This document shows, piece by piece, positions 20,636-25,274 of a DNA stretch of 25,274 nt. The DNA is from a virus, in UHGV virus genome UHGV-0164608; one strand, written 5' to 3'. The position numbers were made by a program, and so were the translations under genes. The notes below the pieces were generated by a model, which did no database searches, was not told the DNA's origin, and saw nothing but the letters and a program-made list of their open reading frames with translations. Each line of letters starts with the position of its first letter. Positions within the stretch are counted from its first letter, which is position 1.

Positions 20636-21145
20636 TCACAGCAAACCGAATGAAGCACCGAGGCCAGTCATGGTATCAACTGCACTCGCCATCGCAGGGT
20701 TAGCCTGTAAACGGGCCTGTAATGAAACAGCAGCCAGCGCCATCAGTCGTGTTACAGAGTTAATGCTGCTGATAGCATCACGACGACCTGCACTGGTTTT
20801 TACATCGCCAGATACCGCACCTGCAGCAACACGCCCGATCTCTGCGGTTGCACTCATGACGTAATGCGGCAGTTTCTCTTTTGCTACCTCATTAATAGGT
20901 ACACATGGCAGGCAGTGAATCTGTGCCAGAAAACCATCTATCAGCGTTGAATCTTCAGTCAGATCGGTAAGCAGCCAGATTTCTGGCGCATTGAGCTGAT
21001 GCGGTTGATCTGGGTTGAGTTTGTTTCGCAGAGTCTGGACATTCATTCCTGCACGTTCTGCCAGCTTCGCCATATTGTGACGAAGTGCAAAAGCTCTACA
21101 GGCTTCATCAAAATGTGGATGTTTGGAAACTTGGTAATCAAACAT
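20636..21145 (-). CDS. cII: CII-like transcriptional activator (phage 186 CII type)
   Basis: [45 protein letters not shown]... is near-identical in pattern to 186 CII. 169 aa from ATG at 21145. Confidence 0.85.
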
Positions 21146-21177
21146 GGTCGACACCCCTGATGTATCCCAAAATGGAA

Positions 21178-21399
21178 CTAGTTGAATACAACATTGCAAT
21201 CAGTAAGTGCATCAACGGTAAGAGCAGCAAGGTTGATCATCACCTTTTCTCTTTTCTTGTCTTTCCGAAGGCGATGCCGAGGGATGCGACCGTCAGCCAG
21301 CATATCGTTAATTGTGTCGATTGAAAGACCAGTAAGTTCGCTATAACGCTCAATTGTGACATGTGGCGTATTCAGAGTTATTGAAATGTTAGGGGTCAT
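21178..21399 (-). CDS. apl: Apl/Cox-type excisionase and lytic regulator
   Basis: 73-aa product, first gene of the rightward early operon, divergent from cI. Confidence 0.75.
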
Positions 21400-21494
21400 G
21401 ATGCAACATCTCCTATTGGCTTGTGGTGAGCCTGTAGTAATCGTGGCAAGTACCCAAATGGGGACAAAACTGATACTAGGATCGCAAAAGAGAT
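21400..21494. promoter_or_regulatory. Lysis-lysogeny switch region with divergent promoters between apl and cI
   Basis: 95-bp intergenic region between divergent regulators; individual operators not resolved. Confidence 0.5.
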
Positions 21495-22091
21495 ATGTCA
21501 ACATCAAAGTACCCAAGTGAGATCAAAATAAATCCCAATAAAGGTGGTAAGGCTGCGATTGAGCGATTAGTCGAAGCTTATGGCTTTACGACACGACAGG
21601 CTTTAGCTGATCACTTGGAAGTATCAAAAAGCACTCTGGCGAACAGGTATTTGCGGGATACGTTTCCTGCAGACTGGATAATCCAATGTGCTCTTGAAAC
21701 AGGAACCTCACTGAAATGGTTAACCACCGGGCAAGGACTTAAGCAAAGCTCGCTGACAGTAGCCACAGAAGAGCTTCCCAAGTTTCGCCTTACCGCAGGC
21801 AAAATGATTGAAGATGGTTCATATGTATTCGATTCATCATTTCTTCCTGCAAATCTTTCATCACCAATTGTTATTCAGGATGGGCTTGTCACATACATTT
21901 GTGATCAAAAATTTTCTGAAGTACTTGATGGACACTGGTTAATCAACATCGACGGAACCTATTCCATTCGAAAAATCACAAAGCTTCCAAAAGGTATGAT
22001 TAAAATTACAACTACAGAGAATAGCTTTGAATGTGCATTTTCTGATATTGAAGTGGTTGCTTGTATAAGAAGTACAATAGTTTCAAATTGA
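21495..22091 (+). CDS. cI: CI immunity repressor (phage 186 CI type)
   Basis: ...ERLVEAYGFTTRQALADHLEVSKSTLANRYLRD...CALETGTSLKWLTTGQG... parallels 186 CI. 198 aa. Confidence 0.85.
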   Translation: MSTSKYPSEIKINPNKGGKAAIERLVEAYGFTTRQALADHLEVSKSTLANRYLRDTFPADWIIQCALETGTSLKWLTTGQGLKQSSLTVATEELPKFRLTAGKMIEDGSYVFDSSFLPANLSSPIVIQDGLVTYICDQKFSEVLDGHWLINIDGTYSIRKITKLPKGMIKITTTENSFECAFSDIEVVACIRSTIVSN

Positions 22092-22111
22092 TATAGTAAA
22101 AGGATTTAAAA

Positions 22112-23788
22112 ATGAATTCATTTTCCATCGTTATATTCTTATTAGCATTTCTCGCCCCTGTTCTAGCTATAATATTATTTAAGCAAAGTAAAGAACACAA
22201 AGCCGCCATAGATAACCTGACGGCTAACAACATAGCCCTTTCCAGCCAACTGAGTGAAAATCAAGAAAAGTTAGCACAGACTGCACGAGATCTATCAGAG
22301 CTTGAAGGGCGAGCAGCACCATTATGGCAATACGAAGAATTGCACAGCGCAGTGATGGAGGCAGAGAATAAGATAAAAAATGCAGACTCAATAGCTAGGC
22401 AAAAAATAGAAGAAGCCCAAATAAAGGCAGCTAAGACAGTAAACGAAGCAAGTTATCAAGCTCAGATAACAATAAGCAACGCTAATAGCGAAGCTATAGC
22501 AATCACCAAAGACGCTCGCGATGCACGCCTGAAAGCCAAAGAACGTCTTGATAATGCCAACAGTAAAGCAAATGAGCTGATCTCAAATGCTAATGACAAC
22601 GCAGTAAAAATTATTTCCGATGCAGAAGAAAGAGCAAAAGAGATTGCTGGTTCAGCATATGAAGCTAAAGAGTTTGCAGAAAAATATGAAGCAGTTGCCA
22701 AATCAATGAAAAATAAAATTGAAGGTTATGGCGATGAATGGATCATCCCTAACCGTAGTGTACTTGATGAATTGGCAGAAAATTATGAGTTTACAGATGC
22801 AGGCAAGGAATTACAAAAAGCCAGGGAGTTAACAAAATCATTAATAAAAACTAATAAAGCAGCTTCGTGTGATTATGTTGAGCAAAACAGGCGTAATACT
22901 GCTATCAACTTTGTTTTGGATGCCTTCAATGGAAGAGTTGACAGTATTTTATCGAAAGTCAAACACAACAATTTTGGAAAACTTTCCCAAGAAATAAAAG
23001 ATGCATTTCAACTTGTAAATTATAATGGATCTGCTTTTAGATCCGCAAAAATAAGTGACATCTATCTTCAGGCACGACTCAACGAGCTAAAATGGGGAGT
23101 TGCAGTTAATGAAATTATGCTCGAAGAAAAAGAGGAGCAAAGAAGGATTAAAGAACAGCTTCGTGAAGAGGAAAGAGCTCGTAGAGAGTATGAAAAAGCG
23201 ATAAAAGAAGCCGAAAAAGAAGAGAAAGCTATTCAGCAAGCTATAAATAAAGCGACGAAAGAGCTTATGCTTGCAAATGAAGAACAACGCTTAGCTTTAG
23301 AGCAAAAAATAGCTGAACTACAGTTAAAATATGAAGAAGCTGAAGCTAAAAACCAACGAGCTATTTCTATGGCTCAACAAACTAGATCAGGCCATGTTTA
23401 TATAATTAGCAATATTGGCTCATTTGGCGAAGATGTATATAAAATTGGAATGACACGCCGCCTTGAACCACTTGATCGTGTTCGTGAACTTGGGGATGCT
23501 AGTGTTCCTTTTTCGTTCGATGTTCATGCGATGATTTATAGTGATGATGCACCGTCATTAGAAAATCATCTGCATAAAGTCTTCAACGAAAAGCAGGTCA
23601 ATAAAATTAACTCACGAAAAGAGTTTTTTAACGTAAATATTAAAGAAATTAAATCGGTTATTGAAGATATGAACATCAATGCCCACTGGACAATGTTTGC
23701 AGAGGCGAAAGAATATAGAGAGTCACTAGCTATTGAACAGGAACGCAAAGCAGCCACTTCCGCCAACGATGAACTACATGTTGCTTAG
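22112..23788 (+). CDS. Membrane-anchored coiled-coil protein with C-terminal T5orf172/GIY-YIG-like domain (DUF4041-like architecture); candidate defence/abortive-infection moron
   Basis: N-terminal TM helix MNSFSIVIFLLAFLAPVLAIILF, ~400 aa of A/E/K-rich coiled coil, then GHVYIISNIGSFGEDVYKIGMTRRLEPLDRVRELGDASVPFSFDVHAMIY...LENHLHKVF. AT-rich, 20 nt downstream of cI. Confidence 0.7.
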   Translation: MNSFSIVIFLLAFLAPVLAIILFKQSKEHKAAIDNLTANNIALSSQLSENQEKLAQTARDLSELEGRAAPLWQYEELHSAVMEAENKIKNADSIARQKIEEAQIKAAKTVNEASYQAQITISNANSEAIAITKDARDARLKAKERLDNANSKANELISNANDNAVKIISDAEERAKEIAGSAYEAKEFAEKYEAVAKSMKNKIEGYGDEWIIPNRSVLDELAENYEFTDAGKELQKARELTKSLIKTNKAASCDYVEQNRRNTAINFVLDAFNGRVDSILSKVKHNNFGKLSQEIKDAFQLVNYNGSAFRSAKISDIYLQARLNELKWGVAVNEIMLEEKEEQRRIKEQLREEERARREYEKAIKEAEKEEKAIQQAINKATKELMLANEEQRLALEQKIAELQLKYEEAEAKNQRAISMAQQTRSGHVYIISNIGSFGEDVYKIGMTRRLEPLDRVRELGDASVPFSFDVHAMIYSDDAPSLENHLHKVFNEKQVNKINSRKEFFNVNIKEIKSVIEDMNINAHWTMFAEAKEYRESLAIEQERKAATSANDELHVA

Positions 23789-23846
23789 CAATGTATGTTT
23801 CATAGCAATCACACATTGATTACTGGTTGTATATACAGTTAAATTT

Positions 23847-23872
23847 AGCCCTCTGATATGAGGGCTTTTTTA
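23847..23872 (+). terminator. Rho-independent terminator abutting the int start codon
   Basis: AGCCCTC-tgatat-GAGGGC followed by TTTTTT, then ATG of int. Confidence 0.6.
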
Positions 23873-24924
23873 TGGCAGTACGAAAACTCACCACAGGAAA
23901 ATGGCTTTGCGAATGTTACCCCGCCGGACGTAGTGGACGTCGTGTGCGTAAACAATTCGCCACCAAAGGCGAAGCACTGGCTTTTGAGCGTCACACGATG
24001 GAAGAAACCGAAGCAAAGCCCTGGCTAGGTGAATCAGTGGATCGTCGAACACTGAAAGACGTGGTTGAGCTATGGTTCAAACTACATGGTAAATCACTGA
24101 CAGCTGGGCAGCATGTCTATGACAAATTGCTGCTGATGGTTGACGCTCTGGGCAATCCCCTTGCAACTGATCTAACCTCTAAAATGTTTGCCCACTATCG
24201 AGATAAACGCCTGACAGGAGAGATCTACTTCAGCGAGAAATGGAAGAAAGGAGCAAGCCCGGTCACCATTAACCTGGAGCAAAGCTATCTAAGTAGTGTT
24301 TTTAGCGAACTATCCCGCCTGGGCGAATGGTCGTATCCGAACCCACTGGAGAACATGCGAAAATTCACCATCGCAGAAAAAGAGATGGCATGGCTTACCC
24401 ATGAGCAGATTGTTGAATTACTGGCTGATTGCAAACGTCAGGACCCAATTCTGGCACTGGTAGTTAAGATATGCTTAAGCACAGGCGCACGCTGGCGAGA
24501 AGCCGTAAATCTTACTCGTTCACAGGTGACCAAATACCGAATTACCTTTGTAAGAACGAAGGGGAAGAAAAACAGAAGCATCCCTATCAGTAAAGAGCTT
24601 TACGAAGAGATCATGGCGCTTGATGGGTTCAATTTCTTCACAGACTGCTATTTTCAATTTTTATCCGTGATGGAAAAAACGTCTATCGTGCTCCCTCGCG
24701 GTCAACTCACACACGTTCTGCGCCATACGTTTGCGGCGCACTTCATGATGTCGGGTGGAAACATTCTGGCCTTACAAAAAATTCTCGGACACCACGATAT
24801 AAAAATGACTATGCGTTACGCACATCTGGCACCGGATCATCTGGAAACGGCGCTCCGTTTCAATCCTCTGGCAACGCTGCCAAGTGGCGACAAAGTGGCG
24901 GCAGCGGTTGGCATTACCCCGTAA
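23872..24924 (+). CDS. int: Tyrosine integrase (P2/186 family)
   Basis: 350-aa product with ...GARWREA..., LTHVLRHTFAAHF, LGHHDIKMTMRYAHL (R, H-x-x-R, Y catalytic residues). Confidence 0.9.
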   Translation: MAVRKLTTGKWLCECYPAGRSGRRVRKQFATKGEALAFERHTMEETEAKPWLGESVDRRTLKDVVELWFKLHGKSLTAGQHVYDKLLLMVDALGNPLATDLTSKMFAHYRDKRLTGEIYFSEKWKKGASPVTINLEQSYLSSVFSELSRLGEWSYPNPLENMRKFTIAEKEMAWLTHEQIVELLADCKRQDPILALVVKICLSTGARWREAVNLTRSQVTKYRITFVRTKGKKNRSIPISKELYEEIMALDGFNFFTDCYFQFLSVMEKTSIVLPRGQLTHVLRHTFAAHFMMSGGNILALQKILGHHDIKMTMRYAHLAPDHLETALRFNPLATLPSGDKVAAAVGITP

Positions 24925-24947: not shown

Positions 24948-24979
24948 AACTTATTGTTTTTACTATAACTTATTGTTTT
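24948..24979. repeat. Two direct 13-bp repeats (aacttattgtttt) 19 bp apart downstream of int; candidate Int arm-type sites
   Basis: Exact direct repeat read from the sequence, in the position expected for the attachment site. Confidence 0.4.
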
Positions 24980-24983
24980 CATT

Positions 24984-25009
24984 AACCCGTTTACATAAAT
25001 GGGTTTTTT
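24984..25009 (+). terminator. Hairpin plus T-run after int; possible terminator
   Basis: aacccgttta-cat-aaatgggtt with one G-T wobble, followed by TTTTTT. Confidence 0.35.
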
Positions 25010-25274
25010 GTTGCCTGGAATTTATGTCTTTCTTAATCAATTGATTAAAATCATACTTTTACACACATGGCGACAGGGGTTTTACCATTTCGGTGTCAGT
25101 CTTTGTTTTATGCCGTTTCAATCGCGTACAATAAATCAACCAAAGCAACCGCGCCGACATCATCCCAGCGTAAATAACTCGCTAAAGAACTTGTTCCTGA
25201 ATCCTTCCCTAAAACTTTCGTAAGCGTACAGCGAGAACCGTATTGACGGGGATGTGTTATTCAGTTGGCAGTGT

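Follow-up and report, generated by a model that had tools for sequence, protein, structure and literature searches.

How can a prophage express its integrase when the only ribosome-binding site of the gene lies inside what looks like a transcription terminator? The question is raised by UHGV virus genome UHGV-0164608, a stretch of 25,274 nucleotides (nt) that is called the window below and is the regulatory end of a 186-like prophage of the P2 family. In this prophage 83 nt separate the stop codon of the defence gene SNIPE from the ATG of int, which encodes a tyrosine integrase (23872-24924; Pfam Int_N and Phage_integrase; 56% identity to phage 186 Int), and the spacer ends in a hairpin set directly against the start codon. 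Positions are those of the window, and features lie on the + strand unless the - strand is given. The answer that we moderately favour from sequence comparison is that this hairpin, a terminator that also hides the Shine-Dalgarno (SD) sequence of int, is bypassed by an SOS-controlled int promoter whose transcript would begin within the hairpin itself.

The segment 23840-23874 reads taaattt-AGCCCTC-tgatat-GAGGGCT-ttttt-ATG. Within it, a 5' arm (AGCCCTC, 23847-23853) and a 3' arm (GAGGGCT, 23860-23866) enclose a TGATAT loop to form the hairpin at 23847-23866, which acts in our reading as both terminator stem and anti-SD fold-back. This is the top + strand site of the terminator scan, with 7 base pairs of which 5 are G-C, a 6-nt loop and a following TTTTTT, and it has all the parts expected of an intrinsic terminator: a G+C-rich stem longer than the minimum of 5 bp, a loop within the range of 3-8 nt, a U-tract right behind the stem and a co-oriented unit upstream, the stem beginning 59 nt past the SNIPE stop at 23788. 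Folding of 23789-23900 with RNAfold returned the identical hairpin in both the minimum free energy (MFE) structure and the centroid (z = -2.42), and the isolated hairpin has a dG of -12.8 kcal/mol. The same bases carry the translation signals of int. Its SD sequence, GAGGG at 23860-23864, lies wholly in the 3' arm at an ideal spacing of 7 nt from the ATG and is the sole purine-rich or SD-like stretch from the -10 region (described below) to the start codon, and the T6 tract at 23866-23871 is at once the terminator U-tract and the spacer between SD and AUG. When RNA that reads through from upstream is folded, the SD has a probability of about 0.00 of being unpaired, and it is fully paired in most of the variants found in relatives. 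The ATG at 23872-23874 is the true start of int, since residue 1 of the encoded protein aligns with residue 1 of 186 Int. A first-pass annotation of this DNA had described the hairpin and T6 run adjoining the ATG, had placed the only purine-rich stretch in the stem and had proposed RNA folding as a check; the sequence, the terminator scan and the fold just given bear this description out. We regard it as very probable that the hairpin is a terminator and SD-sequestering structure in one, and its role in separating int from the upstream cI-SNIPE transcription unit is supported.

Two side observations concern the start of int. The U-tract and start codon pair weakly with AGGAAAA in int codons 9-11 (23866-23905), and this small stem-loop is present in the MFE structures of long and short leaders alike; it may add a layer of translational control or be a product of chance. 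In Klebsiella phage 4LV2017 the deposited integrase start (3586) is 72 nt downstream of the conserved post-hairpin ATG (3514), and because it lies that much too far downstream, the annotated protein is without its N-terminal arm-binding residues.

The distribution of the hairpin was followed across about 155 loci with relatives of this Int, drawn from one genome per species and from IMG/VR contigs. Two architectures are found. In the 186-type architecture cI directly adjoins int or overlaps it (gap 6-46 nt), with no hairpin and no special motifs, while in the module-type architecture 410-3300 nt separate cI from int and a conserved module lies ahead of int. The 83-nt module, with the hairpin as its last element, precedes int in about 120 related loci; it is seen solely where cargo parts cI from int and is absent where cI abuts int, although six loci whose Ints are more distant have none of the motifs despite a cI-int gap of 581-2111 nt. 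About one fifth of complete E. coli genomes carry it (1121 of 5426, including CFT073), as do many other enterobacterial genera.

What is kept within this distribution is the pairing rather than the sequence. Of 46 distinct leaders, 43 have a stable hairpin in the interval from the -10 to the ATG, and about ten unrelated arm sequences maintain it, always with the SD in or at the 3' arm. Arm pairs among the lineages include AGCCCTC / GAGGGCT, AGTCCTC / GAGGACT, CCCCCTT / AAGGGGG and TAGCCC / GGGCTA, and further AATGCTCTCC / GGAGGGCATT, CACATTCTC / GAGAATGTG, ACTCTCCTAAA / TTTAGGAGAGT and CCTCCATT / AATGGAGG, with compensatory changes between arms where, for example, AGTCCTC/GAGGACT replaces AGCCCTC/GAGGGCT. 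An alignment of 25 diverse leaders with MAFFT and RNAalifold yielded no consensus structure, because the stems stand in different registers with unrelated sequences, and it was replaced by per-sequence folding against shuffles, a comparison with leaders that have no module, and a 5'/3' chimera test. The degree of structure far exceeds chance: mean MFE is -11.7 kcal/mol and median z -4.35 for the 46 distinct leaders with the module, whereas the 26 leaders of relatives without it give -2.8 and 0.2 (Mann-Whitney p = 1.8e-10), and chimeras of 5' and 3' halves fold at -6.5 kcal/mol where native halves reach -11.7. The Rahnella, Yersinia, Serratia and Pantoea types keep an SD-pairing hairpin with no T-run. 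Since several lineages do so, the shared selected trait is SD sequestration and not only termination, with terminator function added in the Escherichia and Klebsiella types, including that of the window.

Conservation of this kind also bears on the notion that the hairpin is a translational operator bound by protein, for instance by Int autoregulating its own mRNA. A structured SD region at the start codon is typical of such operators, this Int is related to P2 Int, and P2 Int is reportedly autoregulated. A sequence-specific site is hard to reconcile with arm sequences that differ wholly between close Int relatives, however, and in P2 the GGAGG is free and the hairpin is another one, farther upstream, so that we hold an operator of this sort to be very unlikely.

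The sequence directly ahead of the hairpin has the layout of a promoter. A -35 hexamer, TTGATT (TTGACA or TTGACC in relatives), is placed at 23816-23821 by motif conservation and by promoter scans of the relatives, and the -10 would be TTAAAT at 23839-23844 with a 17-bp spacer or TAAATT at 23840-23845 with an 18-bp spacer, both within a T-W-A-A-A-W-T that is conserved directly after a CAG. This CAG (23836-23838) is one half of a predicted LexA (SOS) box, TACTGGTTGTATATACAGTT, at 23821-23840, a palindrome to which no strand is assigned and whose other half is the CTG at 23823-23825. The box has the expected form, CTG-N10-CAG with an A/T-rich centre, and matches TACTGTATATATATACAGTA at 16 of 20 positions; it occupies the promoter spacer (17 bp) and the first base of the -10. 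The promoter spacer is a typical position for a LexA operator.

Scored with a position weight matrix (PWM) that is approximate, being built from 29 E. coli boxes from the literature (training sites 12.5-26.5 bits, median 20.2), TACTGGTTGTATATACAGTT reaches 24.7 bits and is the best match in the whole 25-kb window, where shuffles average 11.0 and peak at 21.7; the annotated LexA box of 186 p95 scores 26.7 bits on the same matrix. The pre-int boxes of relatives from many enterobacterial genera all lie above the weakest training site (41 of 41 distinct boxes, 14.8-27.3 bits). Promoter scans of these relatives give TTGACA-17-AAAAAT (10/12) in the commonest E. coli variant, L003, and TTGACC-18-TAAATT (9/12) in another relative, L008, in which the scanned -10 ends 2 nt before the terminator stem. 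Across 65 distinct modules ACTG and ATACAGT are at least 97% conserved, with T-W-A-A-A-W-T directly after, while the flanks and hairpin arms vary, and the turnover of the surrounding sequence from Escherichia to Rahnella, Yersinia and Pectobacterium has spared TTGAC, CTG-N10-CAG and the A/T-rich hexamer. On these grounds a LexA-regulated int promoter is likely. The palindrome was also considered as a copy of a CI operator, a candidate that was dropped: a repeat search over 21100-24000 links nothing from the pR/pL region to 23820-23840.

The window holds a second set of LexA matches, at 16203-16237 on the - strand, in the promoter of an SOS operon with a tum or DinI-like gene. A 23.7-bit box (16218, - strand), the second-best LexA match in the window, stands there beside a weaker one of 12.7 bits, and the operon comprises, on the - strand, a 62-amino-acid open reading frame (ORF) at 15991-16176 and a Tum-like ORF with a Pfam DinI domain at 15747-16049. 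It resembles the p95 operon of 186, which is annotated in NC_001317. If both predictions hold, the same prophage has two separate LexA inputs, one at the SOS operon and one at int.

The nature of the conserved columns speaks as well to the suggestion that the 83-nt spacer encodes a small RNA ending at the terminator. An Rfam match to RyhB at 23805-23873 (28.6 bits, E = 0.003) and other weak small-RNA matches are what recommends it. The score is far under the gathering threshold of 55, the matches are terminator-driven, the conserved columns are promoter and operator motifs and not a structured RNA body, and no promoter lies upstream of such an RNA, which leaves this idea most improbable. The Rfam scan of 23600-24100 as a whole returned only sub-threshold RyhB, TarA and Trp leader hits, all of them terminator-driven, and the RyhB hit was judged to be chance.

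How, then, could an int promoter serve a gene whose SD is folded away? The geometry offers a possible solution. The -10 hexamer of the window ends 2 nt ahead of the stem, and the predicted start, 6-8 nt past the -10, is at 23850-23853 (about 23851), in the 5' arm. Across variants the -10 hexamer ends 0-3 nt ahead of the stem, and when the start is set 7 nt past the -10 it falls in the 5' arm for 42 of 44 hairpin variants. A transcript from the int promoter would then keep 0-4 of the 7 pairing bases of the arm, and the truncated hairpin has a dG of -5.8, -2.5 or 0 kcal/mol versus -12.8 for the complete one. Transcription starting inside the 5' arm is accordingly the placement toward which we lean, if with reserve.

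A second regulator may act at the same promoter. An inverted repeat, ATGTATG-N12-CACACAT, lies at 23791-23816 and resembles, by motif comparison, the site of the 186 activator CII. The 186 GenBank record (NC_001317) annotates the CII site of the establishment promoter pE as ATGTTTG-N13-CAAACAT, and the window has one exact match to this motif (0 expected by chance), at 21119-21145 in the 5' end of cII, which agrees with the annotated 186 site in position and sequence and marks pE of this phage. The cII gene (20636-21145, - strand; Pfam Phage_CP76) encodes a cognate CII with 72% BLASTP identity to 186 CII and a near-identical N-terminal half, and its product is the presumed activator at 23791-23816. 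When all loci were scanned for the CII motif with one mismatch allowed, most module-type loci with both regions captured had it in two places alone, pE and a site about 80 nt ahead of the int ATG, whereas 186-type loci had the pE copy alone. The half-sites of relatives read ATGT[AT]TG / CA[AT]ACAT. Copies at pE always have N13 and pre-int copies N12 or N13, the 12-nt spacer being that of the window and of most E. coli and Klebsiella loci and the 13-nt spacer that of other lineages. The repeat is more like a protein site than an RNA stem, because its arms covary loosely (mixed ATGTTTG...CATACAT is common). If the start is at 23851, which is only a predicted position, the half-site centres at 23813 and 23794 fall at -38 and -57; at 186 pE the CII half-sites are centred at -38 and -58 (PMC6593788). 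CII input at the int promoter remains, in our judgement, a tentative proposal that falls somewhat short of even chances.

Taken together, these elements suggest the following scheme. The hairpin would have two jobs: as an intrinsic terminator it would close the lysogenic cI-SNIPE operon, and it would mute int translation on any RNA arriving from upstream, such RNA being silent for int because the 3' arm of the hairpin is the int SD. Read-through RNA, carrying the whole hairpin with a paired SD and a U-tract, should terminate. Integrase would be served instead by its own sigma-70 promoter, packed between the SNIPE stop and the int ATG, whose RNA would start in the 5' arm because the -10 ends 2 nt ahead of the stem and should neither terminate nor hide the SD. 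With LexA in the promoter spacer, this promoter would be shut in a healthy lysogen and open once SOS cleaves LexA, and since the same signal turns on the Tum anti-repressor, tum and int would be derepressed together. CII at the inverted repeat could be a second input while lysogeny is established, as at lambda pI. A lysogen would thus silence int in three ways, by LexA on the promoter, by termination of the cI-SNIPE transcript and by SD fold-back on whatever RNA reads through.

Several observations pull the other way. The window hexamers, TTGATT and TTAAAT, match the consensus at just 8/12 positions, and a promoter scan of the window did not list its own int promoter. The start has been placed by hexamer geometry alone, and the window positions 6-8 nt past the -10 are all pyrimidines, which are less favoured as starts. 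In the short transcript of the window variant RNAfold gives a probability of just 0.03-0.19 that the SD is unpaired; a remaining CUC/GAG stem, together with weak coding-region pairing, keeps it mostly paired. The putative CII site departs from pE in each half-site (ATGTATG and CACACAT each match 6/7), and its N12 spacer falls short of the 20-bp centre-to-centre distance (13-nt spacer) of a pE-type site. The -35 of relatives, moreover, is a consensus one, and a promoter dependent on CII could do without it. Finally, a promoter with LexA in its spacer should be blocked on infection of an undamaged cell as well, in which case Int for integration could be supplied if CII competes with LexA or if transcription from the strong pE leaks through.

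One alternative, in essence the view of the first-pass annotation, is that the hairpin is an ordinary operon-end terminator, that Int comes from rare read-through of the cI-SNIPE transcript (from pL or pE) with ribosomes sometimes melting the hairpin, and that the upstream motifs are no promoter at all. The hairpin does show all terminator features, and the poor hexamer match and silent promoter scan of the window count in favour of this alternative. In 186, int is transcribed with cI from pL and pE (NC_001317 annotation), the cI TAA overlapping the int ATG, and pE is very strong with CII (PMC6593788), so leaky read-through could supply Int for integration. What it leaves unexplained is the conservation of TTGAC, CTG-N10-CAG and the A/T-rich hexamer amid sequence turnover, the exact placement of the window's top LexA match, and the lineages in which an SD-pairing hairpin lacks a T-run yet stands flush against the -10. 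We therefore consider it unlikely, though less so than any of the other alternatives, and prefer a hairpin bypassed by an SOS-controlled promoter.

Under that preferred arrangement several conclusions of the first-pass annotation need to be narrowed. Its statement that int has no free ribosome-binding site is correct for RNA begun upstream of the hairpin but misses a conserved promoter with a predicted start in the 5' arm. Tight limitation of int in the lysogen agrees with the paired SD of read-through RNA, although expression is more likely to be conditional (on SOS and probably on CII). It also had the upstream moron insulated from int. The terminator does part int from the cI-SNIPE unit, but SNIPE is not autonomous: its ATG lies 20 nt past the cI stop with just an AAAGGA stretch, the likely SD, ahead of it, and because that SD is all the junction holds, SNIPE reads as a member of the cI operon and not as an autonomous moron.

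A further reading, that the terminator arrived with the SNIPE cassette as the moron's own and overlaps the SD by accident, does not survive comparison. Morons classically carry their own terminator, and this one stands 59 nt past the SNIPE stop. Yet AGCCCTC/GAGGGCT precedes int behind at least 10 other cargo clusters, among them Old, AriA-like and PDC-M18A, similarity to differently loaded phages sets in at the upstream motifs or inside the hairpin, not after them, and SNIPE has no space for a promoter of its own. The hairpin goes with int and not with the cargo, because the same hairpin types accompany many different cargos, and the 3' arm sits in int-side conserved DNA. A cargo-derived hairpin was rejected on this basis, and we give it hardly any weight.

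The genes around the module are the following. The cI repressor gene (21495-22091; Pfam Phage_CI_repr and Phage_CI_C), named 'repressor protein' in the annotation of Klebsiella phage KP12, opens the lysogenic operon that ends at the hairpin, and an apl-like gene lies at 21178-21399 on the - strand. The SNIPE or PD-Lambda-1 defence gene (22112-23788) encodes 558 amino acids with Pfam DUF4041, T5orf172 (a nuclease domain) and MUG113; PADLOC identifies the protein as PD-Lambda-1 (E = 7e-120) and RefSeq names it 'SNIPE associated domain-containing protein'. SNIPE is a membrane nuclease (PMC13190303). KP12 is a near-identical phage, and near-identical prophages are found in many E. coli chromosomes; that of E. 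coli UMNF18 has 100% identity to the window over 23789-23960. Among relatives, the space between cI and int holds 32 unrelated cargo clusters in 108 loci, the main ORFs co-oriented with cI throughout, and the products include PD-Lambda-1/SNIPE, Old, AbiU, HEC-01, PDC-S20, PDC-M18A and AriA-like proteins. In L003 the cargo includes a 63-amino-acid peptide that looks secreted. In both junctions read, those of the window and L003, the cargo begins a few nucleotides past the cI stop. The cI-int gap is a defence-gene hotspot; PMC13586616 places the hotspot by its flanking genes, and a text search of that paper finds neither 'LexA' nor 'terminator', so that the flanking module is not described there.

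Some further features of the region are recorded here for completeness. A tandem duplication, ATGTTGCTTAGCAAT / ATGTTTCATAGCAAT, with copies 17 nt apart (23778-23809), spans the SNIPE stop and the distal CII-like half-site and may be a recombination scar from the joining of cargo to module. Just past the int stop, a direct repeat, AACTTATTGTTTT, occurs at 24948-24960 and 24967-24979, 19 bp apart, and its copies are candidate Int arm-type sites of attP. Downstream of these repeats follows a second terminator-like hairpin (24984-25005) and then TTTTGTTG. The prophage ends at about 25012-25026, and beyond this end the last 55 nt (25219-25273) have 94% identity to IS66-family transposase regions of Stx phages.

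If the proposed scheme is right, Int is made only on SOS induction or while lysogeny is established, never from the constitutive cI-defence transcript, and this insulation may have let the cI-int junction become a hotspot for defence genes. It would show how genes such as SNIPE can enter the repressor operon and be expressed constitutively without deregulating the recombinase. An integrase that belongs to the host SOS regulon itself and is out of reach of the lysogenic transcript would also bear on prophage stability and spontaneous excision. As a natural part the module is compact, with terminator, operator, promoter and ribosome-binding-site gate in 83 nt. Our literature search found no LexA- or CII-controlled int promoter in P2/186-like phages, and the module is apparently undescribed, but it would be a new form of known kinds of control and not a new principle.

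Phage 186 is the textbook model of an SOS-inducible lysogeny switch, and in it LexA acts only through the Tum anti-repressor while int rides the repressor transcript. The window shares with 186 its phage family, CII, pE site, Tum/DinI SOS operon and Int family, as well as SOS as the induction signal. It differs in that int of 186 overlaps the cI stop with no hairpin, LexA box or separate promoter, LexA being confined to tum, whereas in the clade of the window int is cut off from cI by cargo and a terminator and has a predicted LexA box of its own. That this 186-like clade as a whole has taken int off the repressor operon and put it under a LexA-repressed, CII-responsive promoter with its start inside the hairpin, and thus under two regulons, is a possibility that we advance with some hesitation, at slightly less than even confidence. 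If it is true, excision and integration in a very common group of 186-like prophages are under a control that differs from that of 186. P2, whose free GGAGG and farther hairpin were mentioned above, also differs from the window in having no LexA box.

Outside this family, the closest precedent for a dedicated int promoter removed from the repressor operon is lambda pI (PMC7708051), which likewise has a site for an establishment activator. The 186-type CII is unrelated to lambda CII, however, the site in the window is CII-like (N12, each half-site changed at one base), and a LexA operator is absent from lambda pI. The sorting of transcripts also takes place at opposite ends, since sib retroregulation in lambda acts at the 3' end and the hairpin of the window would act at the 5' end. 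A LexA box overlapping a promoter puts a tyrosine recombinase in the host SOS regulon in integrons too, where it controls intI (PMC3948777). The integron is another kind of element with another recombinase subfamily, and integrons have neither a terminator/anti-SD hairpin nor an activator site.

The nearest parallel to the hairpin itself comes from transposons. In IS10 a fold-back over the translation signals forms only on RNA that reads through from outside, while transcripts from the promoter of the element itself begin inside the 5' arm or beyond it. As in IS10, the translation signals of a recombinase gene here pair with a segment just upstream (GAGGG being the 3' arm), and if the predicted start holds, as geometry suggests for 42 of 44 variants, the gene's own transcript would similarly start in the 5' arm. 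Protection of this kind against external promoters, in IS10/Tn10 and also IS50 and IS3, is credited to Davis, Simons and Kleckner (Cell 1985; cited in PMC13181058). In the window the recombinase is a phage integrase, the fold-back is an intrinsic terminator as well, with a U-tract that doubles as the spacer between SD and AUG, and the 'outside' transcription is that of the phage's own cI-cargo operon, so that, with a start that is predicted and a likeness drawn from sequence, an IS10-type logic would here protect a prophage from its own repressor transcript.

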